A stretch of DNA of 63,363 nucleotides, filler included, from Folioceros fuciformis (taxonomy: Eukaryota), in assembly GCA_049999805.1 (NCBI GenBank). It is 4 parts of 3 records of this genome, joined end to end, with 100 filler letters (N's around TTAATTAATTAA, not from the genome) between each part and the next. Parts side by side here need not be neighbours in the genome. Positions count along the whole stretch, not along the records: positions 26,223 to 43,419 come from JBNGIO010005367.1; 3 more parts are not named here. One strand, written 5' to 3'. Positions 7,998 to 62,136 of this stretch are shown here, piece after piece (positions within the stretch are counted from its first letter, which is position 1; every line of letters begins with the position of its first letter). Both the position numbers and the translations under genes were made by a program. The notes under the pieces were generated by a model. That model saw only the letters and a program-made list of their open reading frames with translations, did not search any database and was not told the DNA's origin.

Positions 7998-10900
7998 TGT
8001 TGCATAATAAAGCTTAGCAGCCATTTATGTAACAAACCAAAAACCCCTAATAGGGTTAGGGCACACAACGAAATGTTATTCAGTTTAAGTCTCTTCTAGT
8101 TGTGTTCCTTAAATATAGTTATTAATTAAGTTAGGTTATAAAAACGGTTACAACACCTCTAAATGTTTTTCTCATGACAACGTTTCTATTTTCTAATTCT
8201 ATTATGCTTTTGCTCCAAGCTTGCGTGTTTCCATCATGCCAGAATGCTGCGTGCATTCTTTATGGTATCAGACCACAAGAATACAAGGCGGCTAATATCA
8301 CACATGAATTGATGTCACAAATGGATAATCTTGTGCAGCCTACTGGTGCTACACTACGCTATGCATGGAGACCGAAGTTATTTAAATTCTGGTCTTTCGT
8401 AGCACCTCTGCTACAATGTCAAACAACATCTATCAGTATTGCATATTCTTGAGTAGCAATGACAAGAAACAGCAAGGGTAGACCTTGTAGATGTGTTTGG
8501 CCACACACATCACATTATCTACATAGCTGTTGTAGCACTAACTGCTACTCTACTTATGATTAGTTTGCATCACACCAGCAATCCATTAATCAATGATAAT
8601 CTTTGTCTTGTTTTCAAAACAAAACTCAACACTACAAGACATTGAGCAGTCTATTAGCGCCTGTTAATTATAGAATCCAAGCCCTAGGACAAGAGGCTTC
8701 CAAGCACTGCTGTAATGTAGATACCGAGATCCAAGTTCTACATAAAACCATAGGTCAATTACAGAAGAAGGTCGCCCTCTTAACCAGTTTGGTATACAAA
8801 GGGTCAACATATAATTCAAATAATACCACCGACATGGCACATAAATCTTACAAATCACTTTCTTTACCAAAGAATCTTGCCTCTTTTAGACCTATCCTAG
8901 AGCCTTTGGAATGTGTCCTTAGTAGTCTAGCCACTCTCTTTAGGTTAGGTGACTCAGACCTTGAATCACTCTTGACCTGCAAATCATATAGCACATCATA
9001 ATTAGTTAGTCAATCTATCTTTTCTCATCTCTGCAGATATGGCAGCTTCTACTAGTACAAATGTAGTTCATACAACTAAGGTCAAGATAAAGGATGGAGA
9101 CCATTTTAACGGGTCCGACTACGCATTCTAGCGAATGCGGATGACAACCATCCTTGAGGAGCATCACCTCATGGACATAGTTGATGGGTCTTTGTCCCAA
9201 CCAACTATGTTGGCATTTGCAACAGGAAAAATGTCTAGAAATGTTATTTCAGCATGGCATAAAAAGGACAAAAGAGCCCGAAGCATCTTACTATCTGCGT
9301 TAGATAGAAATATGATGCATTATACACAAGGACAACTTACCTCGGCAGCAGTATGGAAGGTTTTTCAAGAGATGTTTGCCGCCAAGGATGCTATGTCACT
9401 TGTCAATGCTACCCCTACATTTTACTCACTCCGTATGAAGGAGTCTAATATTGTTGAGCACCATGTGCATCGATTCCACACACTTCGTGCAAGATTATTA
9501 TCTGCAGGGGCAACTTTGACAGAACTGGAGGCAGCAATGGCCCTCCTCACTTTTTTTGCTCATAAGTTACAGAACTTTCGTAAGTTCACAAGCATCCATA
9601 ATCAGACAAGTAGTGCAAGCTATAGCTTTTGGTGGTACATGTGGGTGCCCTATTTGAAGAGGAGTCCAGCAGGACCGAGGTTGGATGTTCTGCTTCACAT
9701 TCACAACAAGTATTATTTATTACCAGAGGAAAAGGTAGAGGCCGTGGAGCCTATAGACCTGATAATCCACCAAGGCGTTTGTATGTGGGACCTCCTAGTT
9801 CTGCAGTACGATGGGTCAAAGGGCCCTGCAATTGGTGTTGATTTCCAAGCCACTTCGAGTATGAGTGCCGAAAGAAATTGGATGGGGAGCTAAGGCATCT
9901 TGCACCATTAACAAATGTGGTTGTTAGGCCATCTACAACTAGCACGAAGGCACCGACTATACTTGCCATTTGTCTTACTCTTACTGAGGCAGACCGTGGC
10001 ATGTGGTTTTTGGATTCCGAAGCGTCTAATCACATATGCCAATCTCATGACATGTTCTGCTCCTACACCATATCCACCATACATCAATTTGTCCTTTTAG
10101 GGGATGATAGTGGCCTATCGATTGCCAGCATAAGCAAAGTCCTACTCAAGTTAAACTACAGACACGAGATACTACTGAAGAGTGTCCTTCATGTCCCTAG
10201 CAAACGAAAAACCTCTTGTTTGTACATAACTTAGTTTCAAACCACAACCTCCTAGTTACCTTTACACCCAGCTCCTGTAAGGTGACTTTTGCAGGTGATG
10301 CTTCCCTTATATTGGCTGAGGGCCTATCATATCACGACCTGTACAGCTTGCACACTACAGCAACTCATCAACAAACTTATATGGCTGACGCTCAACCTGG
10401 CATCAACAACACCTTTATGTGGCACTGCCATCTATGCCACCCTAGTCATGCATATGTTAAACGTGTTGTTGATGGAAAGGATTATACAAAGATGGTCTTA
10501 CCATGAAGACCGCATATTCGTTCTTCTGTGAAAGCTGTCAAGTCGGAAAATTTTTGCAGAAGCCATACAATAATCAGTTCCCTACCATGGCCACTTCTTT
10601 GCTTGAAGTTGTCCACTCTCATATATGTGGCCCAATATCCACCACTTCTTTTGGTGGGGCCTCATATTTTCTTACCTTCTTGGACGAGTGGAGCCGTTTC
10701 TACCATGTCTATTACTTGAGGAACCATCATGAAACATATGCAAAATTCATTGAATATGTGGCCATGGCAGAGGTACAAACAGGATCTGTCATCAAGCGTT
10801 TCTGTAGTGACAATGCAAAGGAATATCTCATTAATGACTTCACATTGTTCTGCAAACAGAAGGAAATTATCCATCAGTTAACAGTTCCTTACCATCCCCC

Positions 10901-20144: not shown

Positions 20145-23100
20145 TATGAATTTACGGGGATGAAATATGCACGCATTTGTGATCGAGAGCTGAGGGGAAC
20201 AGAAGCACGAAACTTGGGTACACAAAATTGATTAAGTGAATAAGCAAATGTCTCAGGCATGTTTTATACTAAACCCTAATATTGAAAGGATATGAAAGTA
20301 ATTCTATATATGTCCAACCCTAACCAGACATAACTAACTTAAGCATAGTCCAGGGTTAATCATAACTTAACACTCCCTCTTAAGCTGGATAGGCTAAAGC
20401 AGGTATCACACGTGGGACTTGACGCCCACCAAACAACTCGAGTACTCACGGACACAACTGAACAACGTATGCCAGCGATGGCGATCCATCTGGCCCCAAC
20501 CACATCTTATATCTGGGTGTTCTTCTACACAATTTTAGAGCTCTTGATTTCAGTCGCGATGAGGATGAGCGAGCCCAGAGCTGTATCAAGCTCTCAGTCC
20601 TGTACCCAGGAACCTGAGATCGTGATGGAGGGTGACACAAGCCGTGTGTGTGTAGGCCAATACCTCAACATTCGAGGGTTCAGAGTCCAGCTGAACATCT
20701 CATTGAGTTGGAAACGGCCTACACCGAGTGCTGATGGCGAGGCAGCTGAGTTGCTACTATTTACGGAAGAGGAAATTGAGCGGGAGGCTGAGCTGCTCAC
20801 GCGTCTTAGGGAGTCGGTGAAGCTCCTGGCTCAGTTGAGGGAGGACAGGGAGTATGGACAATAACTGACCAGCAGCCAAGCGATCAGGTAAACGCTGAGC
20901 TTCATCCGTCTGCTGTTGGTTGTCTTTGTGAACTGTATTGAAGATGTTTTACCCTGCGCTTGTCTTGAGCTGCTGTAAACACAGCCTGGTGGCTAGGGGG
21001 GGGGAGGGCTGAAGAAATAACATTCAAATCAGGGAGCAAAGGCTTCCACCCCCACACCATCTAGATAAGCGCTTCAGTTGTCCACTTTGCATCCTTGATG
21101 ATGTGGACTGTCAGGTCTTGGAGGCCAAGCCCTTCCATATGCTGATAATGCTTTGTTTTGGGCAGAGCCTTGGTCAACACATCAGCCGTGTTCTCGTCTG
21201 TGTGGATATAATCCACTTTGACAACAGCACGCCCAACCACATCCCAGATGTAGTGGTGCTGTATTTCTATATGCTTTGTGCGGGCATGAGATCTCGGATT
21301 GGCAACGAGAGCTAAGGCGGACATGTTATCACACAAGAGAGGAGTTGGCTTCATCTGCTGCTGTCCTAAGTCTATAAGGAAGGTCCTCTCCCATTCTGCT
21401 TCTTTTGATGCATCAGTAAGGCTCTTGTATTCTGCCTCTGTCGATGAGAGGGCTATAGATGCCTGCTTTTTACAGCTCCAGTTAATTGCTGTATCTGCCA
21501 AAAGGAAACAGTAGGTAGATAAACTCCGCCTGCTGTCATTGTCGGATGCCCAGTCCGCATCCGCAAATCCCCGCAAAGTAAATTGTCCCTGACCACTGCT
21601 TTTATAGCATAACCCGTAGGTTTGAGTCCCTTTTAAATAACGAAATACTCATTTTGCAGCAACCCAGTGGGCACGGCCAGGGTTCTCTAGGAATTGGGAG
21701 AGTGTGCTCACAGAAAATTGTATATCCGGGCGTGTCCAGTTACCTACAAAGATAAAGCTTCCTATCGCATGTCTGTATGGGACATCAACCATCTCTCTTT
21801 TCTCTGCTTCAGACTGTGGGCACTGCAGACTTGTGAGTTTAACACCCATAGCTGAAGGTGTAGTTGTTGGTCGTGCGTGGTCTAACTTGAACTTAATCAA
21901 TATATCCTGTATGTATTGATTATGGTGGATCATGAGGAGACCCTCTAATCTTGCACGAAGTAATTGTATGCCTAAGTAGAAACGTAGTTCCCCTATGTCC
22001 TTCATTTCATATTTGCTGCTTAGCATGATTTTGACCTCTTCTAACAATTTGATGTTGTTGGCAGATAGGATGACATCATCGACATAGAGTGCAAGCACTA
22101 CATACTCATGTCCTCTCGTCAGTCTATACACGTTACTGTCGGCTGCACTTTGTTTGAAGAATCTACTGAGGAGGTACAAGTGTATATTTAAGTACCAAAC
22201 CCGACCACTCTGTTTTAAACCATAGATGGTTTTCAACAATTTGCACCCTCGCTTGGGATATGTCTTATCTTTGTATCCTTCAGGCTCAGTCATGTAAAGA
22301 TCTTCGTCCAGTGCGCCGTAGAGGTAGGCAGTGCATACGTCCATTTGGTATAGCTCAAGATTGTATTCTGCTGCTAGTGCTAAGATCATCCTGATAGACT
22401 GCGATCTAACAACAGGGAAAAAAGTCTCTTGATAGTCTAGGCCTTCGACTTGTGTGAAGCCCCTGGCAACTAATCTCGCCTTATACCTAGCTATCTCACC
22501 TTTCTCATTCAGTTTTAGCTTGAAGACCCACTTGCAAGAGATGGGTTTTCTACCTGCTAGAAGATCCACTAATTTCCAGGTCTGATTCTTAACAAGACTG
22601 TTGAATTCGTCATCTACTGCAAATTTCCACTTGTCTTTCTCTGGACTCGTAAAAGCTTCTTTCCATGTTTTAGGTTCTAAGTGAATCGTGGTGGATGCAG
22701 CATGGACAGCTTGAACATACAATGTGCGAAAGTCTATAGACTCATACCTTGGTTCATGCCACTGATCACTGTGGTGGTCTATGCGTGGTGGACCTTCTCA
22801 AGGGTGGTTCATGTTCTACGGGGTCAGCAGCCTATGCAATCTCAGGTTGTCCTTCAAAGGTATCAGCTGCAGCAAACAAATCTGGATCATCTCCATCAGC
22901 AGGTATGTCAGGATCGTGTACGTCTACAAGATCATGGTTTTCCTGCTCTTCATTATTGGGATTGTGATCCTCATTCAGATTTTCTGGGTTTGCAGCATCT
23001 GCTTCTTCGATATCAACCTGATCATCTGCCTCTAGGTCGTTGTCCAGACCATCTTGATTGTCATTAACAACTGATGGAATAGGGGCAATGTGTTCGCCAG

Positions 23101-26100
23101 CCGTCTCTTCAGGAAACTCAGATTCTGAGGTCTCACTATGGATAAGTATATCTCCCTCGGAAGGTAAAAGGGGGTTCTGGTCAGCATTTAGAGAAATGAC
23201 GGGTTCAATGAATGTGACAGAACAAGCTAATACCACTTTGTTGTTTGCAGGGTCGTATAGCTTGTATGCTTTCGCGTTATCACTATATCCGATAAATATG
23301 AAAGCTTGGGCTCGAGCATCCAACTTCTTTCTCTTCTCCTTTGGGATGAGAGCAAAAGCTCAAGAGCCAAACACTCGAAGGTGTAACAGGCTGGGTTTTC
23401 GATGCCATATAGCTTCATACGGTGTTTTGGATGAGACAGAACTGGTGATCAGCCTGTTGAGCACATATGTGGCTGCGACAACTACTTTAGCCCAATACGT
23501 CTGGGGCAAGCCAGCCCAGATCAGCATGCTGCGGGTCATGGAGAGAAGTGTTTGATTCTTTCTTTCTGCCACTCCGTTCTGTTGGGGAGTGTAAGGGACA
23601 ATCAATTGACGTCGAATCCCTCGTTCATCAAGGAAAGCATCAAAAGCTAAGTTGTTAAACTCAGAGCCATTGTCTATCCACAGTTGCTTGAGAAGGAGAC
23701 CAGTCTGTCTCTCTATAGTGACTAACCATTCTTGAAAGATGGGAAAGGTATCACTTTTCAATTGTATTGGATAGGTCCATGTGTAACGGGAATAGTTGTC
23801 AGTGAGGCAGAAATAATATTGAGATCCTCCAAGGGAGGGAACATGTATTTTGCCTGATATGTCTGCATGCACTAAATCCAGTGTTTGTGCGGCTCTGTAA
23901 GTAGCCTGTGTAGGAAAACATTGCTGTTTCTGCTTTGCAACAATACAAGCCTCACAGGAGGGCAAGTCCTTGAAACAACGGGGCAGAGGTTCCAAATGGT
24001 ACTGCTGTAGGGACATATCAACAAGCTTGTGTTTGTTGATATGGCCTAGCCGAGCATGCCAAAGGACAGCAAGTTTTTGTGATTCCTGTGATGCAAGACC
24101 TGCTCTGTGGCATATTGTGTAAATATCCAACCTGTACAGGTCATTATCGGGTATGCCCTTGAACACAAGGGTCTGGAGGTCTGTCTTTTTGTAGAAAGAG
24201 CATACATCATCCATAGCACGAAGCTCATATTGTCGAAGTTGCATCAGTTTGCTCAAAGACATCAAATTCTTGGCCATGGTCGGGACATAAAGCACGTCTG
24301 CAAGGGTAAGGATTGAACCATCATGTAGGGTGAACTTACATGTCCCATGGCCTCGTATTTTCAGGCTCGTCTTGCTTCGTTCATCACAGAGAAGCACCTT
24401 GTCAGCACTCAGGCTAAGAGTTAAGGTGAAGAACTGTTCTTTCTGAGTACATATGTGGGAGGTGGCGCCAGAATCCAGGTACCAGCTGCCTGCCTCATAC
24501 CATGCGCTTGTGAGACAAACTGTAAGGATCTTCACAGTAGGTTTGGTATCACATGTTTGTGTCTCCTTGATGGCAACTGTGGCAGTGCCTTTCTGAGTAC
24601 GTTGAGGTTCTTCTGCTTTCTTTTTCTTACATTCCCTTGCCCAATGGCCAGCGATACCGCACCAGTTGCAGTTTCCTGGTCGTTTGGAAGGCGAATTTGA
24701 AGATATAGAATCAGGTCTCCCTCCGGCCTTTGCTTTTCCTTTACTCTTGTTGGGCCTAAAACCTGTAGTTAGCACCTTTTCCGCCTTTTGCCTATGGCCA
24801 CCGGCAGAGATAAGGCGGGCCTGCTCTTCCTGATACAGGGCACCAATCACATCTTCCACAGTGATTGTGCTAGTTGAGGAACCAGCAGCGCCATATGGTT
24901 TTATGGGTTCGTTCTGAGTTGTGACAAACGCCTGATAGGATGGAGGCAAGCTGGAGAGGAGCTTTGCAATTGCTTGTGACTCTGGCACTTTATCGCCAGT
25001 CAGGGAAGTAATCTGAGCTCGAAGGTGTCTAAATCGGCTGATGTGTGATGACACTTTATCTCCCTCCTTCATCCGTAATGTAAAGTACTCCATTTGTATC
25101 GCGCACAAGGACATCATGTTTTGTTGCTGATACATTTTTTCAAGTAGAGCCCACATGACAGCTGATTCCCCAAGGAACTCGATGTCTGGGACAAGATCGG
25201 TGTCAAGTCCATTTATGAGCAGGGCAATAGCTATACTATTGTACTGATCCCATTTTGCGATTTCATCTGCTCTAGGTTTGGGATTGCCATTGGGATCTAG
25301 CTTCACATATGTCCCAGCAACAACGGGCCAAACTCCACAAGCCAAAAACATGGCTTTCATGCGTACTCGCCACACACTATATTTTGACCATTAAAACGGT
25401 CTTTCTCCTTAGTGTCGGCGGTGAATACAAGTACAGCAGTTGCCATAGTGTATAAGGTTTGTACAGGGGGTGGCCAGGTTGTGGGTATTGGCTGCAGGTT
25501 CAGTGATTGAAACTGCTGCACCAAAGAATTCAGCAATGCATCTATCGATCCTGCGGACATAAAATACCTATTTGAACGTACAGTAGCTAAGGCTTTGACA
25601 ATTCAAGAAAGAATCTATGTGCTAGCAGATTGTGTCGATGTGTGCCTAAGTATGTAACGTAGGGAAGGTCTGATGGGGGGGGGGGCTTAGCTTGGAGGGC
25701 AATGGGTGTGGTACACCTGGGGCTTTGCATGCTAACCTCCCCTTACAGTCCTTTGTGTATACATGGTTAGATTACAAAAAAAACGAAACGTTATGCCTTT
25801 TCAATTAGAGGTTAGTAATGGTTCATTTTTCTCTTGAAAACAAGCATGTATGTGAAACCCTAACTGTCATGCCATGCCACCTACTTGTGGACAGAGGTGT
25901 CTGTTGGCTGACCAGTAACATACAGGGAGTAATGAGGAAAGGAAGAGACACACCATTTCAGGTGCCTCTTCAAATCTAGCACCAATTTGTGCCTGCGTCT
26001 GGCGCTCCAAGCTCCCTCGCGCTCGAAGCAGCGGAAGCAAGAATTTCACAGAACTTGGGGTGGCGGATCCTGTGGACAGGTCGCGTTTCTTTCCATTGTA

Positions 26101-26122: not shown

Positions 26123-26222
26123 NNNNNNNNNNNNNNNNNNNNNNNNNNNNNNNNNNNNNNNNNNNNTTAATTAATTAANNNNNNNNNNNNNNNNNNNNNN
26201 NNNNNNNNNNNNNNNNNNNNNN
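26123..26222. other. Artificial contig spacer
   Basis: 44 N + TTAATTAATTAA (stops in all six frames) + 44 N. Confidence 0.97.
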
Positions 26223-31618: not shown

Positions 31619-34543
31619 TTAATGCCGGTCTCCGCACGAGCAAGAGCCATCCAAAAAGCGATGGACTCGATGACCGTCTCTCACGACAATCTCTCGCCTC
31701 TCCAGACGGGACATGACCTTTGTGCTGCTATGGCAGTCATTGCACATCCGCAGATTCTTAGTAACAAACAACGTGGTACCGTCCGGTGTGTTCAGGAGAC
31801 CGTATGCCAAAGCCAGTTTCTCTGCATGACCGCATAGAGCGTCCTCCTTCTCCTGCTCAGAGACAGGCTTCAAGACGAGCTCTGTTTGAGGAACATGGCC
31901 CCCTTCATCCTTCAACCTCATGTTCACACTCCTCAGCGTTGTCCAAATGTCGGTTCTATCTTCTCCTACTGTGAACTCATGGACTTGTCTATCTACTTCA
32001 ATGCATGCTTTTGCAGGCTTCTTCAGCGCACCTGCTGCCTTTCTTAGCATCTCCACACTGTCCACATCATCCCACCTGCCAGCACTTGCATAGATGGTTC
32101 CCAAGAGGACGTAGGGGCTAGCATCTGTAGGATCCAATGCTACAAGTCGGTCGAAGCATCGCCTTCCTCGCTCGAGATCGCCATAGCCCTTGCAAGCGCT
32201 CAGTAGAGCTGTCCAGGCCACAGAGTCATTTACAACGGACGCGCTTTCCAGCATGTCCTCAGCGTCGTCTAGTTGGCCTGACCGGCCGAGGAGATCAACC
32301 ATGCAGCTGTAGTGATAGTTATTAGGCACAATCCTGTATTCCTCCATCATCCTGAAATACCTCTGGCCCTCCTGCACCAGGCCCGCGTGACTGCAAGCCA
32401 CTAAGAGACAGAGAAAAGTCGTCTCGTCTGGGATGATTCCTTGCTGTAGCATTGTTTCGAAGCACTGTATGGCCATGGGGCCGTCGCTGTGTACAGCATA
32501 TCCATTGAGCATGGCAGTCCATGTCACCACATCTCTTTTGGGTAAACTGTGAAAAACTTCGACAGCATCCTCCAAACTCCCACACTTTACATACATGTCC
32601 ACGAGCCCGTTCCCAAGTTGCCCATCGTCTTCAAGTCCTCCATCCCGAATCTGAATGTGAAGCTGCTTCCCAAGCTGGACTGCTCCTGCTGAGGCACATG
32701 CCTGAAGCAGGGACAGAAACGTGACACGATTTGCAGGTGTAACGCCCTCATGTCGCATAGACGCATACAAAGCCAGAGCTTCGTGCCCAAGCCCCTGCTG
32801 AGAGTATCCTGAGATCATGCAATTCCATGTGACAACGTCTTTGCTGGTCAAACTGTCGAAGACTTCTCGAGCCTCTTTCAAGCTTCCACATTTAGCATAC
32901 ATATTGACCAAGCAGTTGCCAATGAGCACATCAGGTTCGAGACCTCTTTCCCGAATCTGTAAGTGGATCTCCTTCCCCTGCTGCAGAGCTCCTACAGTTG
33001 TGCATGCTTGAACTAGACACAAAAACGTGACACGGTCGCCTAGGGTTACACCTTCGTGCTGCATACTTTCGTACACCGCCAGAGCTTCTCTACCTTGTCC
33101 CTGCTGTGTATATCCTGCTATCATGGAGTTCCATGTCACCACGTCTCTCCTTGGCAAACGATCAAACACTTTCCGTGCATCCACCAAGCTCCCACATTTC
33201 GCATACATATTCACCAAGGAGTTACCAATGACTGCATCGCCTTCCAACCCTCTCCCACGAATCTGTAAGTGTAAAGCCCTCCCTTGGTTAAGCGAGACCA
33301 CACTGGCACAAGCTTGAAGAAGGGAAACGAATGTCACATGATCTGCTACCACCATGCCTTCCTGTCGCATACTCTCATACAATGCCAGTGCTTCTCCTCC
33401 CAGGCCCTGCTGACTATATCCTGCTATGATGGCATTCCATGTCACCACGTTCCTCCTGGGCAGGCTGTCAAACACGTTCCGAGCCTCCTCCAAGCTCCCA
33501 CATTTAGCATACATGTTCACTAGGCTGGTGGCAACAAACACATCCTCCTTCACAACATTTGCCGGGATATCAGCATGCACCTGATTCCCAGAAGCCAGGT
33601 CCTCGGCCTCAGCACAAGCCTTCAGGGCTGCCACGAAGATCCTATTGTCCGGCTTCACACTCCCTGCTCGCATCTGCTTGTAAAGGCTGACAGCCTGGGA
33701 GGGCTGCCCAAGCCGAGCATGCGCCAGGATAATGGACGACCACACGTAGAGGTCAGGCCTGTTCACCTTGGTGAAAACCTGCACTGCGTCCTCCAACTTG
33801 CCATGAGCGGCATACATCCCAATGATCTGTGTGGCCAAATATGCATTAGACTGGAACCCACATTCCACAGCCAGAGCATGAACTCGCCTACCACATCCAA
33901 GATCCTTGTCCGCCAAGCACCTCCTGAGGACTCTGTGTAACACAGGAGCATTGACATGACATCCCCGCTGTACCAGCAGCTCCAAGGCTTGAACGGAATC
34001 ACTGAGCACCGCATCCTCGCACCGTTTCCTCAGCGCTTCCACCTCACAATTCGAAGCCTCTCTTCCGTCTCCTTCCTCACCTCCTTTCACCGCTACACCC
34101 CACCCGGCCAGCTGCGAGTCCACCCAAGCTGGCTTAAGGGTGTTGTCAAGCCACAGCGGCTCCCTGGAGATCTTGTGCCTGAAGTCTGGATGCCGGGGGC
34201 TCTTCTTGCCCACCCTGTTGTCCCACCATTCCGACGGGTCCGCAAACAGATGTCGCCACAGGAGCTCCTGCCGTTCTTTCTGACTGATGCCTTCGTCTTT
34301 GCAATTGCCACCTGCCTCCCCTGGCCGCTGATTGCAGTCTCCTGAACCTCCTTGCCTGTTGCCTGGTAGGCCATAGCGGAACTCACATCCGGAATTCGCC
34401 CAAACCGGGCTCAGCTTCCGTGACCTCAAAGTGGTGGGCGTGTGGAAGATCGCAGACCGTGCCTGAATCACTCCTGTGCCGGAAACCGAATATAAGAAAT
34501 CTTGCGCTGGTGACAACAAAGGCAGCTCCAGCTGCATTGCCAT
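31619..34543 (-). CDS. PLS-class PPR protein with DYW:KP (DRH-type) deaminase domain and N-terminal PDF motif; candidate U-to-C organellar RNA editing factor
   Basis: Intronless 974-aa ORF with ~17 P/L/S repeats, E1/E2, KKPAKACIEV in place of the PG box, HAEKLA...CNDC and C-terminal DRH. Residues ~89-146 read LWRHLFADPSEWWDNR...HPDFRHK...LWL...PAWV. Confidence 0.95.
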   Translation of the reverse strand: MAMQLELPLLSPAQDFLYSVSGTGVIQARSAIFHTPTTLRSRKLSPVWANSGCEFRYGLPGNRQGGSGDCNQRPGEAGGNCKDEGISQKERQELLWRHLFADPSEWWDNRVGKKSPRHPDFRHKISREPLWLDNTLKPAWVDSQLAGWGVAVKGGEEGDGREASNCEVEALRKRCEDAVLSDSVQALELLVQRGCHVNAPVLHRVLRRCLADKDLGCGRRVHALAVECGFQSNAYLATQIIGMYAAHGKLEDAVQVFTKVNRPDLYVWSSIILAHARLGQPSQAVSLYKQMRAGSVKPDNRIFVAALKACAEAEDLASGNQVHADIPANVVKEDVFVATSLVNMYAKCGSLEEARNVFDSLPRRNVVTWNAIIAGYSQQGLGGEALALYESMRQEGMVVADHVTFVSLLQACASVVSLNQGRALHLQIRGRGLEGDAVIGNSLVNMYAKCGSLVDARKVFDRLPRRDVVTWNSMIAGYTQQGQGREALAVYESMQHEGVTLGDRVTFLCLVQACTTVGALQQGKEIHLQIRERGLEPDVLIGNCLVNMYAKCGSLKEAREVFDSLTSKDVVTWNCMISGYSQQGLGHEALALYASMRHEGVTPANRVTFLSLLQACASAGAVQLGKQLHIQIRDGGLEDDGQLGNGLVDMYVKCGSLEDAVEVFHSLPKRDVVTWTAMLNGYAVHSDGPMAIQCFETMLQQGIIPDETTFLCLLVACSHAGLVQEGQRYFRMMEEYRIVPNNYHYSCMVDLLGRSGQLDDAEDMLESASVVNDSVAWTALLSACKGYGDLERGRRCFDRLVALDPTDASPYVLLGTIYASAGRWDDVDSVEMLRKAAGALKKPAKACIEVDRQVHEFTVGEDRTDIWTTLRSVNMRLKDEGGHVPQTELVLKPVSEQEKEDALCGHAEKLALAYGLLNTPDGTTLFVTKNLRMCNDCHSSTKVMSRLERREIVVRDGHRVHRFLDGSCSCGDRH

Positions 34544-34631
34544 GAAACCGTCGAGAATTCTGGGAAAACCGGTGTATCAATAGCGAGAAAATCTGTGGAA
34601 GCCAGAATACTGAAGAAAGTGAAAACACACG

Positions 34632-37508
34632 ATGCCATTGCAAAGGGAGCTCGTTTCCCAGCCACCCTCTGCTCTCCAGTGGTCGTCCAGCATGATCTGT
34701 ACTAAGCAGAGTCCTGCCTGGGTGAATGTCGGGTGTGTTTCTAGCAACGGCCTTACAGCCAAACAAGCAACCAGTTCAGATCTCTGTTCAGCTTCTGGTT
34801 TTGCTGGTCCTGCTGTTGCTGTTTATAGCTGTGTCAGTGAAGGAGTGGGGCATAAAGAGCGGCAGGCGCTACTGTGGGAGCACTTCTTCTTCGATCCCTC
34901 TGATTGGTGGGACAACAGGGCGGACAAAAGAAGCCCCCGGCATCCTGACTTCAGGCACAAGACCTCCAAAGAGCCCCTATGGCTCAACAGCTCTCACAAG
35001 CCTGCGTGGGTGGATTCGGAGCTGGCCAGTTTGGATGTTCGAATGGGGGGGCCTCGGGTTTGTAGTCTGGGAAATGACGAAGAACAGAAAGCAATACTTC
35101 AGGCGTGCGAGGAGAGCGATCTGAGGAAAGCTGTAGAAAAGCTGGATTTCCTGGTGCACGGGGGATGCCATGTGACCGCAGGTGTCTTCTACCGGTTCCT
35201 GAAGAGGTGCATAGTGCAGAAGGATATTGTTTATGGTAGAAGAATCCACACTCTGACAGTCAGGTGTGGGTACGAGTCCAATGCATTCTTGGCCAACCAG
35301 ATAATTGGGATGTATGCTGGTCACGGCAAACTGGAGGATGCAGTGCAGGTATTCAACAAAGTGAGTGTCCCCGATGTGTACATGTGGTCCTCCATCATTT
35401 TTGCGCATGCCAGACATGGAGAATCTGAAAGGGCTGTCAAGCTCTATCTAAAGATGCGAGAAGGAAGCGTGAAGGCTGATAACCATATCTTCGTGGCAGC
35501 TCTGACAGCGTGTGCCTCGGCTGAGGACCTGGATTCTGGCAAGCAGGTGCATGCTGACATTCAGGCGAGTGCTGTGAAGCCAGACACTTTTGTTGCCACC
35601 AGCCTGGTCAACATGTATGCGAAATGCGGTAGCTTAGAGGATGCTAGAAAGGTGTTTGATTGTTTGCCCAGCAGGAATGTGGAGACATGGAACGCCATCA
35701 TAGGAGGATACAGTCAGAGAGGCCTTGCAAAAGAAGCGCTCAACCTGTATGGACGTATGCAGCATGCTGGATCAACATTGCCCAATAATGTTACGTTTGT
35801 TTGCCTTCTTCAAGCATGTGCAAGCCTAGGGGACCTTCAGCAAGGGAAACAGCTTCACTCGCAGATTCGTGAGCGAGGATTTGAAGCTGACGCAGTCATC
35901 GGTAACTGCTTGGTGAACATGTACGCGAAATGCGGGGACCTGAAGGCTGCTCGCAATGTTTTTGATGGGTTGCCAAGGAGAGATTTGGTGACCTGGAATG
36001 CTATGATCGCAGGGTATTCTCAGCAGGGGCTCGGGCGAGAAGCCCTGGCTCTGTATGCAAGTATGCAGGATGATGGCATGACTCTCGCAAGTCATGTTAC
36101 ATTCGTATGCCTTCTTCAAGCCTGTGCCAGCTTAGGAGCACTACAGCAGGGAAAACAGCTGCACTCCCAGATCCGAGAAAGAAACCTTGAAGCTGACCCT
36201 TACATTGGCAGCTGCCTGGTGGACATGTATTCAAAATGTGGGAGCTTGGAGGATGCTCGGGACGTTTTCGACAGATTGCCGGTGAAGAATCTGGTGACAT
36301 GCACTGCCATGATTGCTGGATATACTCAGCAGGGGCTGGGCAGGGAAGCGTTGTCTCTTTTCTCAAGTATGCAGGTTGAAGGCAGCATTCCAGTGGATCG
36401 TGTGACATTCATCTGCCTACTTCAGGCTTGCGCCAGTGTGGGAGCACTGCAGCTGGGGAAGCAGATTCATGCCCAGCTTCGAGAAAGAGATCTTGAAGCT
36501 GATGCTAGAGTTGGTAACTGCCTGGTGGACATGTATGCAAAATGCGGGAGCTTGGAGGATGCTCGCAACGTGTTTGACAGCTTGCCAACAAGGGATTTAG
36601 TGACGTGGACCACCTTGCTGAATGGGTACGCTGAACATGGTGACGGTGCCATGGCAATGACATGTTTCGAGCAGATGCTTCACCAAGGTGTCCAGCCAGA
36701 TGAGACGACTTTCATTTGCCTCTTCGTGGCATGCAGTCATGCAGGTCTGGTCCACGAGGGCCAGGAGTATTTCAGGAGCATGGTGGAGGACCATGGGATT
36801 GTGCCATCAGATCGACACTACAGTTGCTTGGTTGATCTCCTGAGTCGGTCCGGCCAGCTGGATGCGGCTGAAAACGTGCTGCGAACCACTGCGGTTGGTA
36901 ATGACGTCGTGGCGTGGACAGCTTTGCTGAGTGCTTGCAAAAGCTACGGTGATGTGGAACGTGGAAGACGATGCTTTGACAGTCTTGTGGCCATGGAAGC
37001 AGAGGATGCAAGTTGGTATGTGTTACTGGGGAACATATATGCGAACGCCAGCAGGTGGGACGAGGTGAGCAGGATAGAAAGCATGAGGAAATCAGCAGGT
37101 GCTGTGAAAAAGCCTGCAAGGGCTTGCATTGAAGTGAAGAACGAGGTGCACGAGTTCACAGTAGGGCAGAAGAGACCTGATATTTCCTCACACCTCCAGA
37201 GCGTCAATACGAGACTGAAAGAAGGCGGGCACTTGCCACAGACCGAGTTGGTTCTGAGGGCCATGTCGGAGCTAGAAAAGGAGGATGCCCTGTGCGGGCA
37301 TGCGGAGAAATTGGCCCTTGCCTACGGTCTGCTCAACACACCAGATGGCGCAACTTTGCTTGTCACCAAAAATTTGCGTATGTGCAATGACTGTCACAGT
37401 AGCACCAAGATCATGTCCCGTCTCGAGAAGCGAGAGATCATCGTGCGAGATGCCCATCGGGTGCATCGATTTCAAGATGGCAGTTGCTCTTGCAGGGATC
37501 GGCACTGA
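34632..37508 (+). CDS. PLS-class PPR protein with DYW:KP (DRH-type) domain and N-terminal PDF motif; candidate U-to-C editing factor
   Basis: Intronless 958-aa ORF with the same architecture: PDF motif (34854-35027), ~17 PLS repeats, KKPARACIEV, HAEKLA, CNDC, DRH. Confidence 0.95.
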   Translation: MPLQRELVSQPPSALQWSSSMICTKQSPAWVNVGCVSSNGLTAKQATSSDLCSASGFAGPAVAVYSCVSEGVGHKERQALLWEHFFFDPSDWWDNRADKRSPRHPDFRHKTSKEPLWLNSSHKPAWVDSELASLDVRMGGPRVCSLGNDEEQKAILQACEESDLRKAVEKLDFLVHGGCHVTAGVFYRFLKRCIVQKDIVYGRRIHTLTVRCGYESNAFLANQIIGMYAGHGKLEDAVQVFNKVSVPDVYMWSSIIFAHARHGESERAVKLYLKMREGSVKADNHIFVAALTACASAEDLDSGKQVHADIQASAVKPDTFVATSLVNMYAKCGSLEDARKVFDCLPSRNVETWNAIIGGYSQRGLAKEALNLYGRMQHAGSTLPNNVTFVCLLQACASLGDLQQGKQLHSQIRERGFEADAVIGNCLVNMYAKCGDLKAARNVFDGLPRRDLVTWNAMIAGYSQQGLGREALALYASMQDDGMTLASHVTFVCLLQACASLGALQQGKQLHSQIRERNLEADPYIGSCLVDMYSKCGSLEDARDVFDRLPVKNLVTCTAMIAGYTQQGLGREALSLFSSMQVEGSIPVDRVTFICLLQACASVGALQLGKQIHAQLRERDLEADARVGNCLVDMYAKCGSLEDARNVFDSLPTRDLVTWTTLLNGYAEHGDGAMAMTCFEQMLHQGVQPDETTFICLFVACSHAGLVHEGQEYFRSMVEDHGIVPSDRHYSCLVDLLSRSGQLDAAENVLRTTAVGNDVVAWTALLSACKSYGDVERGRRCFDSLVAMEAEDASWYVLLGNIYANASRWDEVSRIESMRKSAGAVKKPARACIEVKNEVHEFTVGQKRPDISSHLQSVNTRLKEGGHLPQTELVLRAMSELEKEDALCGHAEKLALAYGLLNTPDGATLLVTKNLRMCNDCHSSTKIMSRLEKREIIVRDAHRVHRFQDGSCSCRDRH

Positions 37509-43419: not shown

Positions 43420-43519
43420 NNNNNNNNNNNNNNNNNNNNNNNNNNNNNNNNNNNNNNNNNNNNTTAATTAATTAANNNNNNNNNNNNNNNNNNNNNNNNN
43501 NNNNNNNNNNNNNNNNNNN
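43420..43519. other. Artificial contig spacer
   Basis: 44 N + TTAATTAATTAA + 44 N. Confidence 0.97.
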
Positions 43520-45894: not shown

Positions 45895-48048
45895 ATGGCG
45901 ATGCAGCTGGAGCTGGCCAGGCTCTTATCACCTTCACCCAAGCCAACGTCTTCCTGTTTGATGTTCCGCAGCAGCACACCAGGGAAGGTAGGTGTCCCTG
46001 AGCACAGCTTAAAAGAGCGGCATGAGCTTCTGTGGCGCCAGTTCTTCTCAGATCCCTCGGAGTGGTGGGATAACAGGGGTGATAAAAGGAGCCCCACCCA
46101 TCCCGACTTCAGGCACAGGTCCTCCAGGCAGCCGCTGTGGCTCAACAGCCCTCATAAGCCGGCGTGGGTGGATTCAGAGCTGGCGTCATGGGATGCCTCG
46201 GGTGCGGGGCAGGACGATGAGGAGGCTTCCATGCTCCGTACTCTGAGGAACCTCTGCGGCGAGGAGGAGCTCAGTGAGGCCGTGAGAGCGTTGGATTTCT
46301 TAGTGCAGAGGGGACGTCGTGTCCCCACTGATGTTTTCTACAATGTTCTGAAGAGGTGCATGGCGGAGGGAAATCTTGGTTGTGGTAGGCGTGTTCACTC
46401 TCTGGCTGTCGAATGTGGGTACGAGGCGAATGCATTTCTGGCCACCCAGATCGTCGGGATGTATGCTTCTCATGGGGAGTTGGAGGATGTTATGCAGGTC
46501 TTCTCCAAAGTTAGGACCCCAGATGCCCACCTCTGGTCCTCCACCATGTTGGCCCATGCCCGTCATGGGGAGCCAGCCGATGCCATCAACCTGTACCGAA
46601 GATGGCGAGAAGAAAGTGGGAAGCCGAATGACCATATCTTTGTGGCGGTCCTCAAGGCTTGTGCCTCGGCAGAAGACCTGGTGGCGGGGAGGGAGGTCCA
46701 TGCTGATATCAACGCCAGTGATGTGAAGGCTCATATCTTCGTTGGGAACAGCCTAGTGAATATGTACGCCAAGTGTGGGAGCTTGGAGGAAGCCCGGGAA
46801 GTCTTTGAGAGCATGCCTAGGAAGGATGCGGTGACATGGAATGCCATGATCGCAGGGTATTCCCAGCAGGGGCTCGGGCGACAAGCCTTGGCGCTGTATT
46901 CCAGTATGCATCAAGAGGGTTTAATTCCAGCGGATACTTTCACCTTCGTCTGTCTTCTTCGATCGTGTGCTAGTGTGGGAGCATTGCAGCAAGGGGAGCA
47001 GCTTCATTCACAGATTCGTAGTAGAGGCCTTGAGGATGATGTGTTCATCGGCAGTTGCTTGGTGGACATGTATGCAAAATGTGGGAGTTTGGGACATGCT
47101 TGCTCAGTGTTTGACAGACTGCCCAGAAAGGACGTAGTGACATGGAATGCCATGCTGAATGGGTGCTCTGAACATGGCGATGTCGACACGGCAATTCGGT
47201 GTTTTGAAGACATGCTGGAGCAAGGTGTCCAACCGAATGAGACGACTTTTCTGTGCCTTTTTGTGGCATGCAGTCGTGCAGGCCTGGTGCATGTTGGCCA
47301 GCGATACGTACGGATGATGGTGGAGGAGCATTTGATTGTGCCTACTGAACACCACTACAGTTGCATGGTTGATCTTCTTGGCCGGTCTGGCCGATTAGAT
47401 GATGCTGAAAGGATGTTGCGAACTCCACTGCTCATGAACGATGCTGTTGGCTGGAAAGCTTTGCTCAGTGCTTGCAGAAGTTACGGCGAAGTAGAACGTG
47501 GGAGGAGATGCTTCGAGCGCCTTGTAGAACTGGAGCCTGAAAGTGCAAGTCCGTATCTGCTGCTGGGTAGCATCTATGCGAGAGCGGGCAGGTGGGATGA
47601 TGTCGATCGGATGGAAAGCTTGAGACGGGCAGCAGGTGCTAAAACGAAGCCCGCAAAAGCCTGCATTGAAGTGAAGAACGAGGTACATGAGTTCACAGTA
47701 GGCGAAGAGAGGTGTGACATCTCGTTTAAGCTCCAGAGCGGGGGCACGAGGTCGGAGGAGGAACAAGGCCTTGTGCAGGACCCGAAGTTATTCCTGAGGT
47801 CAGTATCTGAGATGGAGCCGGAAAATTCCTTATGTGGGCATGTAGAGAAACTGGCACTGGCGTATGGGCTGCTGAACACACCAGATGGCACAGCTTTGTT
47901 AATTACCAAAAATCTGCGCATGTGCAATGACTGCCACACAGGAACGAAACTCATGTCCCGACTGGAGCAACGAGACATTGTAGTGCGGGATGCGCATGGC
48001 GTACACCGATTCCGTAACGGGTCTTGTTCATGTGGGGATAGGCATTGA
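45895..48048 (+). CDS. Shorter PLS-PPR DYW:KP (DRH-type) protein with PDF motif and HVE active-site variant
   Basis: Intronless ORF. The ATG at 45895 gives MAMQLEL, as in the 34543 gene. PDF motif at ~46012-46185, ~11 PLS repeats, KTKPAKACIEV, HVEKLA, CNDC, DRH. Confidence 0.92.
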   Translation: MAMQLELARLLSPSPKPTSSCLMFRSSTPGKVGVPEHSLKERHELLWRQFFSDPSEWWDNRGDKRSPTHPDFRHRSSRQPLWLNSPHKPAWVDSELASWDASGAGQDDEEASMLRTLRNLCGEEELSEAVRALDFLVQRGRRVPTDVFYNVLKRCMAEGNLGCGRRVHSLAVECGYEANAFLATQIVGMYASHGELEDVMQVFSKVRTPDAHLWSSTMLAHARHGEPADAINLYRRWREESGKPNDHIFVAVLKACASAEDLVAGREVHADINASDVKAHIFVGNSLVNMYAKCGSLEEAREVFESMPRKDAVTWNAMIAGYSQQGLGRQALALYSSMHQEGLIPADTFTFVCLLRSCASVGALQQGEQLHSQIRSRGLEDDVFIGSCLVDMYAKCGSLGHACSVFDRLPRKDVVTWNAMLNGCSEHGDVDTAIRCFEDMLEQGVQPNETTFLCLFVACSRAGLVHVGQRYVRMMVEEHLIVPTEHHYSCMVDLLGRSGRLDDAERMLRTPLLMNDAVGWKALLSACRSYGEVERGRRCFERLVELEPESASPYLLLGSIYARAGRWDDVDRMESLRRAAGAKTKPAKACIEVKNEVHEFTVGEERCDISFKLQSGGTRSEEEQGLVQDPKLFLRSVSEMEPENSLCGHVEKLALAYGLLNTPDGTALLITKNLRMCNDCHTGTKLMSRLEQRDIVVRDAHGVHRFRNGSCSCGDRH

Positions 48049-59558: not shown

Positions 59559-62136
59559 GAAATATAAGTATTCGTGAATGGATCTCTTGAAGGGTCCACA
59601 AATGTTTGAGTGTGCTAACTCTAGTCATCTTGTGGATCTGCTAGCGGATTTGGGGAAAGAAGTACGGTGGTTCTTCCCAAGTGAGCATGCCTCACAGATG
59701 CCGAACTCCTCCACATTGGTGAGTGTAATGCCTTTAGCTGCACCTGCTATAAGCATTTGTTTCATCCTTTGTACCCCCATATGGCCAAGTCTTGTATGCC
59801 ATAAAAATGATTTGTTGTGCTTAGCTGCGGCAGATAATGAAAGAACAAGATTATGACTTCTGTCCATATTGAGGTGATACAAGTCATCATTCTTGAGGTC
59901 TCCAGTGTCGATTAGCTCTCCTTGAGTTGTCTCCACAATGCAATGGCCTTGTCCAAAACACACATAACAGCCAGATTCATCAATTTTACGGACTGAAAAT
60001 AGGTTTTTGGTTAGTCCTGGAATGAGTAGGACGTCTGAAATTTGGAGTGTGCTTCCTGGCTTTAGGTTTAAGTCTACTGATCCATGTCCTTCTATGGTAC
60101 GTCTTGTGTCGTCACCCAGGCTGACGAAATGAGGAGGCTGAGAGGGTGTGAAGTCTTTGAAGTATTCTTGATACGAGGTCATATGCTGTGACGCCCTTAA
60201 GTCTATGTACCAGGAGTGCTGGCTTTGAGCAGTTAGGCATGAGGCAACCAGGGGTGATGGTGATGAGTCTGACCTAGTGTTTTGTAGGCATAGGAATGCC
60301 TTTGAATGTCTTTTCATGGTTAAAGCTAACTAGCCTGATGCTTCTTCTCTGTCTCTTCTATGATTGTTGTCTGCCATGCGTTTCCGGCACTCCTCATAAG
60401 TGTGGCCCGGAATCTTGCAGTAGCCGCGGATTTTTCTCCAACTTGGGTTGAAACTACCACGTCCTCTAGAATAAGAACCTCTGCTCTTGTGTTGCTGTTG
60501 GCCTTTATAGTTGGGCCGGCCACGACCTCGAGCTCTACCTCTACCTGTGACCTCGAGCTCTACCTCTACCTGTGNNNNNNNNNNCGAGCTCTACCTCTAC
60601 CTGTGACCTCGAGCTCTACCTCTACCTGTGAAGTAGGCTGCACTTGACGATTCTCCGCCGAAGGAGGTAGCGAATACTTTTCTCCTTGCTTCTTTTGTCA
60701 ACATTGCACTGATCACTTTGTTAACCGTGAGTGGGGCTGCACCTTGTAGGGACTGGACTATGAAGGTCCATGATTCAGGTAGAGTGGACAGCAGTATTGC
60801 TGCCATTAAATCTTCAGAGATGGTGAAGCCGCACGATTGAAACTTTGCATTCCAGTTCCTAACTAGCATGGTATGTGCATCCACTTGGTTAGTTTCTGAC
60901 ATTCTTAGAGAGAATTGTTTTTTGATAATGTGGACTGTGTGCATGATGTATGTTGTAGCGTATATGTTGTGGAGCTGTTACCATGCCTACGCGGTTGTTT
61001 CTGTCCCTTCCAACTACTGTACATTTCTTGATTTTATGCCTTGCATGATGACGTTCCTGGCTTGCAAGTTTTTGTCATCCCACGCTTCCTTTTGAGCATC
61101 TATAGCGTTAGGACCTGAGGGGCGTGCTGTGATCACAGGTGGTGACCCGACTCCTCCTACGAACTCCTAGAGCTTCCTCTCTTTGAGGATATTTGTGATT
61201 CTGAACTTCCATATGGGGAAGCTATGTTGCTGCCCATCAAATCTGTCCTCCTTGGACAATGAGATATTGGAGGCTGCTATTTTGTGTTGCTTATTTCTGT
61301 TGTGTGTGTGTGTGGGCAGATGCTAACGTATGTGGCTGTTTGCTGTTAGCTTATGTCTTGAAGACAGAGCTCCTTAGGAGGCAAGTAGTGTCCAGGTGCA
61401 TGGTGAGTAGAACTCCCACTATTTTGGGTTCGTTGGTGTTTCTAGGATTTTGCAGTTGGTTAATTTTGTGGATTACTGATATCTCTAATCATTTCAGGTT
61501 GTGGAGGATTCCTGAAGAAATTGTTCTTTCTAGATAGGCTGTCTAGATGGATGTGAATCCTTTGTTTGATGTAGTTGGCGTTGCAGGGGATGACCACATC
61601 GAAGGATGTGGTGTATTCATTGATCATTGTTGATGAATGGGAAGGAAACCTGAATGTAGGAGAGATCGTATTCTATAGGGTCTAGAAATCCCCTCAATAG
61701 CAGCTCTTCCCCTAAGAGGAGAAGAACGCCATAGACTGTGGACCATGCGTAGACTAGCAAGTCTTCGTGGGCTTCCTTTAGAAAAGCCTGTTTTCTGTGG
61801 AATCTTTGAAATTCCAGATTTTGGGCATCTCTGTTTGCCCTTCTAAGCTTGCGCTCTTTCTTTTTAGAGCGAGGCATGATGGCTGGGTTTATTTGTCATG
61901 ATTGAGTGGCAGAGATGGCAGGTGCGCGATTGCGGCTTGCTCTGATACCATGAAAATGTTCAATGCATCCCTAACCGATCAACGTGCAAGCAAGAGAATC
62001 AATCACGTTCGTGGTCTCTACAGTTTATTTGTTCTGGTAAAGCGGTGCCACGAAACGCAACCGCTTAGAAGCATGTCGTTTCGTGTCAAGTGAACCATGC
62101 CCTAACTAATGCTATAGGGATACTATTATTGTAACA
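59559..62136 (-). mobile_element. 5' half of a Ty1/copia element (LTR, PBS, gag, protease, start of integrase)
   Basis: LTR at ~61951-62136 (TG...CA on the minus strand) and PBS TGGTATCAGAGC at 61939-61950. Gag fragments at 60597-61260; protease and GAG-pre-integrase at 59625-60317 (WYIDLRASQHM; LWHTRLGH...CEACSLGK). Confidence 0.9.
60521..60630. repeat. 24-bp tandem repeat encoding (GRGRARGH/R)n in the gag nucleocapsid; contains a 10-N gap
   Basis: GACCTCGAGCTCTACCTCTACCTGT repeated; Ns at 60575-60584. Confidence 0.8.

Follow-up and report, generated by a model that had tools for sequence, protein, structure and literature searches.

An OSB-like PDF module precedes the PPR array in three candidate U-to-C editing factors of Folioceros fuciformis

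Introduction

Editing factors of the pentatricopeptide repeat (PPR) family usually consist of a PPR tract, the E1 and E2 motifs and a DYW domain, and helpers such as the MORF, ORRM and OZ proteins act on them in trans. A 63,363-nucleotide stretch of joined genome pieces from Folioceros fuciformis (assembly GCA_049999805.1), hereafter the window, contains three PPR genes of the DYW:KP type, referred to as genes 1, 2 and 3, whose products carry an additional block ahead of the PPR array. This raises the questions of what the block is, whether it belongs to reverse (U-to-C) editing in particular, and what it might add to a PPR protein. As judged from sequence profiles, the block is homologous to the PDF motif of organellar single-stranded DNA-binding (OSB) proteins. 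We lean, at somewhat better than even chances, towards the view that it is a genuine, ancient and optional accessory module which would bind single-stranded nucleic acid and stand outside catalysis.

Results and discussion

A conserved block ahead of the PPR array

Genes 1, 2 and 3 (Table 1) are all intronless open reading frames (ORFs). Each product has a PLS-type PPR array, E1/E2 motifs and a C-terminal DYW deaminase domain, with Pfam matches to the PPR families, to E_motif (E-values 6e-14 to 7e-15) and to DYW_deaminase (1.6e-31 to 7.7e-36, the last for gene 1). No model in the Pfam scan lies over the N-terminal 100-150 residues of any of the three proteins. It is in this part that the three proteins share a block of 58 amino acids (aa), in which 38 of the 58 columns are invariant; the second and third copies are 74% and 72% identical to the first. 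The core DNA word TGGTGGGAYAAYMG, which encodes WWDNR, occurs three times in the window and in the blocks only, where 100 shuffles gave an expectation of 0.00.

The block is far better conserved than its surroundings. In the three-way alignment, amino acid identity is 72-78% in the block, but only 26-56% ahead of it and 23-35% over the following 40 columns. The ratio of nonsynonymous to synonymous substitution rates (dN/dS) tells the same story: the block (0.12-0.18) resembles the PPR-E part (0.14-0.17), whereas the linker has 0.35-0.75. The block is under purifying selection, as the PPR array is. Synonymous divergence (dS) is about 0.7-1.2, and the three paralogues are therefore old. The initial annotation had described a block shared by three of three PPR genes, probably conserved by selection and foreign to the PLS-E1-E2-DYW architecture. 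All of this holds: the copies lie where they were placed, no Pfam model covers them, and the window contains no further PPR ORF of at least 250 aa.

Homology to the OSB PDF motif

The PDF motif, some 50 aa with a Pro-Asp-Phe signature, was reportedly first described in plant OSB proteins (OSB1-4) by Zaegel et al. in 2006. A word search with a single copy of the block gave four matches among four candidates, namely three PPR proteins and one 118-aa fragment. A first profile was then made from six copies, the three from the window and one each from proteins P0004, P0005 and P0007, and this matched 79 proteins at E-values up to 10 among 1345 candidates. OSB proteins were prominent among them: OSB3-like P0016 (E 3.2e-36), OSB2-like P0025 (E 5.2e-23) and the OSB1-named P0060, P0061, P0065 and P0068 (E 3e-12 to 3e-13). 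In P0016 a Pfam single-stranded DNA-binding (SSB) domain at residues 78-170 is followed by three PDF copies, and in the OSB-named matches the PDF copies likewise lie C-terminal of the SSB-like part, the arrangement given for OSBs in reviews (PMC6963530, PMC4166229).

In the other direction, a hidden Markov model (HMM) was built with 21 PDF copies taken from 16 proteins that are OSB-named or have an SSB domain; the copy boundaries came from the first profile, which makes the comparison mildly circular, although the scores are too strong for doubt. Searched against six-frame ORF pieces of the window, this OSB-only HMM found the three blocks (67-77 bits, E 6e-20 to 6e-23) and nothing else at E-values up to 10. 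With the OSB-only HMM finding the blocks and the reverse profile reaching OSB1, OSB2 and OSB3, the assignment of the block to the OSB PDF motif is borne out, and on these profile matches the two are homologous. Three other origins were considered and rejected. Chance or low complexity is ruled out by the DNA word shuffles and the OSB-only HMM, and a capping helix of the PPR array by the homology to the OSB PDF. A gene-model artefact is ruled out as well, the frame from PDF to PPR being open in the three paralogues and in NCBI-annotated proteins of six named species.

The likeness extends over the whole motif. Both versions are about 50-58 aa long, share the pattern W...WWDNR..K...PDF(R/K)HK....LW.....P.WV with an invariant P-D-F, and occur in tandem, with one to three copies in PPR proteins as in OSBs. 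P31-D32-F33 is invariant in the three window copies and in all 33 rows of a mixed OSB/PPR alignment. The shared core comprises W8, P15, W18, W19, D20, R22, K25, P31-D32-F33, H35, K36, L42, W43, P50, W52 and V53, and its conservation is about equal in 38 PPR-linked and 175 SSB-linked copies. The setting of the motif is different. OSBs carry their PDF copies at the C-terminal side, after an SSB-like OB fold, whereas each window protein has one copy before a PLS-type PPR array. The three proteins are not members of the OSB family: they carry the PDF but lack the combination of an SSB-like OB fold with C-terminal PDFs, and no SSB domain was found in them by Pfam.

A full scan of 1.84 billion representatives returned 1082 proteins at E 0.001 or better, with at most 13 PDF copies per protein. 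Matches were assigned by a local test to three classes (PPR, SSB-like or neither). The 79 matches of the six-copy profile fall into 22 PPR, 34 SSB-like and 23 neither, and the 150 best representatives of the full scan (of 1082) into 8, 73 and 69, respectively. Long arrays of 7-13 PDF copies are seen in P0083-P0088, P0008 and P0092, most of them without SSB or PPR by the local test. The 13-copy protein P0083 has a weak Pfam SSB match at residues 935-1023, below the cut-off.

The classes differ in mean net charge, at +1.87 for PPR-linked copies, +1.13 for OSB copies and -1.05 for the 176 copies of the neither class. This bears on the possibility that the PDF is a protein-protein module, which would recruit or oligomerise with partners (OSBs or PDF-only repeat proteins) and not touch nucleic acid. 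Many PDF proteins are indeed pure arrays of 5-10 copies without SSB or PPR in the local test (P0084-P0086 and P0088), and the acidic charge of the neither copies means that not all PDFs look like nucleic-acid binders. However, the PPR-linked copies are the most basic class, and they keep the aromatic and basic core of the OSB copies, which are reported ssDNA (single-stranded DNA) binders. A pure protein-protein function is, to our mind, decidedly unlikely for them.

Predicted structure

An AlphaFold2 model of the block, computed from the 33-row alignment that mixes OSB and PPR copies, has a predicted local distance difference test score (pLDDT) of 93.6 and a predicted template modelling score of 0.76. 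It consists of a helix (2-13), short strands at 18-20 and 33-35 and a second helix (52-57). In the full-length model of the gene 3 protein (pLDDT 87.7) residues 1-36 score below 50 and the PPR array above 90. The PDF (40-97) retains the elements of the isolated model there, with ten-residue block means of 85-94, and residues 101-110 dip to 61. This prediction agrees with a folded module that is carried on a short linker and preceded by a disordered targeting presequence. The PDF is best explained as a small alpha/beta domain that folds on its own and lies at the N-terminus of the mature protein or close to it.

Comparisons with known structures found no solved counterpart of the module. Foldseek gave no match in the PDB at E 0.001 or better (best E 2.8), the best score in a wide structure comparison with VIA-align was Z 2.5, and the best PDB sequence against the six-copy profile was CP29 at E 0.069. 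The PDB matches obtained from the 33-row alignment were due to its SSB and PPR flanks and not to the PDF. These comparisons point neither to a new fold nor to a known one.

The predicted fold also speaks to whether the block might belong to the transit peptide or be a relic in decay, in either case with no function in the mature protein. It does lie near the N-terminus, from residue 40, 75 or 89, and a degenerate remnant in the KP-like protein P0226 (residues 18-37, 11 bits) shows that the module can decay. Nevertheless, dN/dS in the window copies has stayed low over old duplicates, the predicted fold is confident, the homologous domain lies inside mature OSB proteins, C-terminal of the SSB domain, and the module is conserved from bryophytes to ferns. 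We see next to no chance for this explanation.

The link to reverse editing

The three genes were first annotated as DYW:KP factors, and the domains agree with this. They are 133-134 aa long and have a (K/T)KPA(K/R)A box at the place of the canonical PG box, an altered HxE (HAE or HVE) followed by CNDCH, and a DRH tail in place of DYW, in three of three genes. The Lys of KNLRMC falls at domain position 88 or 89 in all of them. Hornwort DYW:KP proteins were reportedly treated by Gerke in 2020 and Gutmann in 2020. DRH and GRP are described as the two hornwort variants of DYW:KP, both candidate U-to-C editors (PMC9478123), and Lys88 of the DYW domain is reported as essential for U-to-C activity (PMC11845758). 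On their sequence motifs, the three genes are candidate U-to-C editors, and these features would also place their origin in a hornwort or a close relative.

Gene 3 stands somewhat apart. It has HVE at the zinc-site HxE where genes 1 and 2 have HAE, two internal deletions make its PPR array shorter than those of the other two, and divergence is greater in the stretch preceding HxE. In its full-length model, residues 623-646 have a pLDDT below 50.

All three DYW:KP genes of the window carry a PDF, which would be expected if the module had been recruited for U-to-C editing, for instance by holding the crosslinked RNA or by melting targets. Three further KP-like proteins carry one as well: P0228, whose tail is DRH, and P0046 and P0235, which end in GRP. 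However, the module is not confined to this type. PG-type proteins have it too, namely P0078, P0210, P0052 of the moss Ceratodon purpureus and P0011 of the lycophyte Diphasiastrum complanatum. In P0011, three PDF copies are combined with a PG box, HSE and a tail ending in ...CGDYW. Moreover, PDF-PPR proteins without a DYW domain were found in the ferns Adiantum and Ceratopteris and in the liverwort Calypogeia fissa. In every PPR match for which positions were given, the PDF copies (one to three) lie N-terminal of the array. P0004 and P0005 are a pair of PLS-E proteins of roughly 1370 aa, each with three tandem N-terminal PDF copies, and together with P0011 these three-copy PPR proteins mirror the one to three copies of OSBs.

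A search in the opposite direction was made with the DYW:KP domain of gene 1, and 120 relatives were listed, whose DYW domains are up to 83% identical to it. Among these 120, a PDF is present in only 3 of 35 KP-like relatives, in none of 77 PG-type relatives (mostly from seed plants) and in none of 8 unclassified ones. The fraction of 3/35 understates the true one, because in many PDF-less KP models the sequence begins only at the array or within it. N-terminal completeness was gauged by the residues ahead of the first pre-PPR helix, a noisy measure whose values for P0222, P0223, P0227 and P0245 are register errors inside the repeats. Of the nine KP-like models in which a credible 95-170 residues precede the array, three carry a PDF, and P0221, P0225, P0231, P0243 and P0246 have none despite 96-131 residues in that position. 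The remnant in P0226 suggests that the module was lost by decay in some lineages.

The window genes compare with hornwort DRH-type DYW:KP proteins as follows. They share the PLS array, E1/E2, the DYW domain with KP box, HAE (HVE in gene 3) and CNDCH, Lys 88/89 and the DRH tail, but have in addition an N-terminal PDF, which is absent from 32 of the 35 listed KP-like relatives, some of which are cut at the N-terminus. The designer KP proteins likewise edit without a PDF (PMC9478123). The specific link to DYW:KP or reverse editing that had been suggested thus does not stand, given PG-type and DYW-less carriers and so few KP-like ones; an adaptation specific to KP-type editing is already contradicted by the distribution of the PDF, and we consider it very improbable. 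The count of three in three is explained by the three genes being old paralogues of one PDF-bearing lineage. On the sequences compared, the PDF is not an invention or a signature of reverse editors.

Age of the fusion

A quick maximum-likelihood tree was made from 158 PDF copies, after removal of those covering fewer than 50 of the 58 profile positions. Every one of the 38 PPR-linked copies is in it, the window's own three among them, together with 70 of the 175 SSB-linked and 50 of the 176 other copies, both drawn randomly. All but one of the PPR-linked copies (37/38) fall in one group of 45 rows (SH-aLRT branch support 83, not starred), and the exception sits on a very long branch. The PPR label changes five times on the tree, against 34.1 times when shuffled, and none of 500 shuffles was as low. 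The window copies lie in a starred set of 29 rows (25 PPR and 4 other) with fern and KP-type copies, and a second starred set of 11 rows holds lycophyte, moss and liverwort copies. With 58 columns the tree is no more than suggestive, but it would agree with the fusion having arisen once or a few times early in land plants and having then spread among PPR proteins. The whole distribution is best explained by an old PDF-PPR lineage, present in a liverwort, a moss, a lycophyte, ferns and these hornwort-type genes, whose members have a KP-type DYW domain, a PG-type DYW domain or none. All 11 PDF-PPR matches of the six-copy profile search that bear an organism name come from non-seed plants; as the profile search was limited by the word index, this is weak evidence that seed plants lack the fusion.

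Proposed role

The role that we favour for the PDF, an accessory that binds single-stranded nucleic acid, would work as follows. The module would keep the activity of its OSB counterpart, that is sequence-nonspecific binding of single-stranded nucleic acid through the conserved aromatic and basic residues. On RNA, a PPR tract lies parallel to its target, its N-terminus facing the 5′ end, and the site of DYW action is the 3′ end of this footprint. Because of this polarity, an N-terminal PDF may be expected to contact the strand 5′ of the PPR footprint, where it could strengthen binding and prevent the target from folding. The module is not needed for catalysis, since most KP relatives and the designer KP proteins do without it. 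There is a parallel in MORF, ORRM/RRM proteins and RRM-PPR fusions, in which a less specific second module helps a PPR factor, sometimes within one chain (PMC13386178), although their fold and family are unrelated to those of the PDF. MORF is found only in seed plants according to the same text, whereas the PDF-PPR proteins with a named organism are all from non-seed plants.

For the activity itself, the PDF motifs of OSBs are held responsible for ssDNA binding (PMC4166229), and that of AtOSB1 is reported to be sufficient for it (PMC6963530). Several points weigh against the role proposed here. Recombinant AtOSB1 and AtOSB2 favour ssDNA over double-stranded DNA or RNA (PMC4166229), so that a role on RNA is an extrapolation and a role on DNA is equally open. 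Designer KP proteins made of PLS and C-terminal domains alone edit U to C (PMC9478123), and the PDF is hence dispensable for editing as such; the low count among KP-like relatives, given above, is of the same kind. PPR-linked copies also differ from OSB copies at positions 37 (S/T against E/D), 39 (R/K against G), 49 (K against T/D) and 54 (D against L), and these residues could reflect a changed partner or a shift in ligand. Lastly, the tree used to date the fusion has 58 columns, came from a quick search and unites the PPR-linked copies by a branch with an SH-aLRT of only 83.

The first of these points leads to the main rival, in which the PDF is a tether to ssDNA or to the nucleoid, anchoring the PPR protein to single-stranded organellar DNA, as in transcription bubbles, R-loops or intermediates of replication or recombination, for co-transcriptional editing or processing. 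The sufficiency of the AtOSB1 PDF and the preference of AtOSB1 and AtOSB2 for ssDNA over RNA favour it, as do the retention of all core residues in the PPR-linked copies and the presence, as in OSBs, of up to three tandem copies ahead of some PPR arrays (P0004, P0005 and P0011). Yet most relatives do without the module (3/35 KP-like relatives have it), and the class-specific positions allow for a changed ligand. The sequence data are equally compatible with a tether and with the RNA-side accessory; we take the tether to be a serious possibility, albeit an unlikely one. It is quite unlikely that the PDF docks on the displaced strand of transcription bubbles, R-loops or recombination intermediates and so couples editing or processing to organellar DNA. 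Were this the case, a subset of non-seed-plant PPR factors would act co-transcriptionally at the nucleoid and, in the extreme, the DYW deaminase would reach ssDNA. The functions put forward in the initial annotation, from nucleoid tether and R-loops to ssDNA deamination and a stand-in for MORF, are speculative.

In PPR editing factors the PDF is a fourth, cis-linked module, and its counterpart in OSB proteins is reported to bind ssDNA. The module is found in PPR proteins of a liverwort, a moss, a lycophyte, ferns and these hornwort-type genes, is under selection and is predicted with confidence to fold. Engineered PPR editors would profit from a small extra module if it raised affinity or opened up structured targets.

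Relation to published work

A literature search turned up no paper connecting PPR proteins with PDF or OSB, although a mention in Zaegel 2006, Gerke 2020, Gutmann 2020 or in supplements is possible. The search terms do co-occur in PMC6963530, but there they concern RNA polymerases and not a PDF-PPR fusion. In the main text of a 2026 kingdom-wide survey of editing-factor domain fusions (PMC13386178), 'OSB' and 'PDF' have zero occurrences. Surveys based on domain libraries would miss the PDF, because Pfam has no model of it, and this fits with no published report having been found. What is described here is a known motif and a known enzyme family in an apparently undescribed architecture.

The three genes and their surroundings

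The coordinates of the genes, modules and domains are collected in Table 1.

Table 1. Features of the three PDF-PPR genes, in positions of the whole window
Feature	Position	Strand	Basis
Gene 1: PDF-PPR-E1-E2-DYW (KP, DRH tail), 974 aa + stop, no intron needed	31619..34543	-	ORF + Pfam
Gene 2: PDF-PPR-E1-E2-DYW (KP, DRH tail), 958 aa + stop	34632..37508	+	ORF + Pfam
Gene 3: PDF-PPR-E1-E2-DYW (KP, DRH tail), 717 aa + stop, shorter PPR array	45895..48048	+	ORF + Pfam
Gene 1 PDF module, residues 89-146	34106..34279	-	OSB-only HMM 73.0 bits, E 1e-21; AlphaFold2 pLDDT 93.6
Gene 2 PDF module, residues 75-132	34854..35027	+	OSB-only HMM 76.9 bits, E 6.2e-23
Gene 3 PDF module, residues 40-97	46012..46185	+	OSB-only HMM 67.3 bits, E 6.1e-20
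Gene 1 DYW:KP domain, residues 841-974: KKPAKA box, HAE, CNDCH, K89, ...GDRH	31622..32023	-	motif reading + Pfam
Gene 2 DYW:KP domain, residues 826-958: KKPARA, HAE, CNDCH, K88, ...RDRH	37107..37505	+	motif reading
Gene 3 DYW:KP domain, residues 584-717: TKPAKA, HVE (not HAE), CNDCH, K89, ...GDRH	47644..48045	+	motif reading
Gene 1 presequence, residues 1-88, poorly conserved	34280..34543	-	aa identity 34-56% to paralogues
Spacer between divergent start codons of genes 1 and 2, 88 bp	34544..34631	.	

The poorly conserved N-terminal stretch of the gene 1 protein is presumed to be an organelle-targeting region. Genes 1 and 2 lie head to head, and the short distance between their start codons implies a very compact shared promoter or overlapping 5′ ends. 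Contigs of run X3, guessed to be RNA and bearing the same organism code as the DNA runs, span 34018-34430 and 34463-34937 with zero differences; they are no evidence of transcription, because the intergenic spacer is covered too.

The window consists of four pieces joined by three identical 100-bp spacers (26123-26222, 43420-43519 and 59459-59558), each made of 44 N, TTAATTAATTAA and another 44 N. These resemble the linkers of joined contigs, which is why the window is taken as joined pieces; a separate run of 10 N lies at 60575-60584. Gene 3 is on another piece than genes 1 and 2, and no continuous sequence links it to them.

ORFs of Copia-type long terminal repeat (LTR) retrotransposons were also seen. 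On the minus strand, gag, a Pol beta-barrel and integrase lie at 23360-25375, and RVT_2 lies at 21649-22722; as RVT_2 is in a separate ORF from gag and integrase, this element is probably broken. A further Copia-type gag fragment is found at 9135-9893 on the plus strand.

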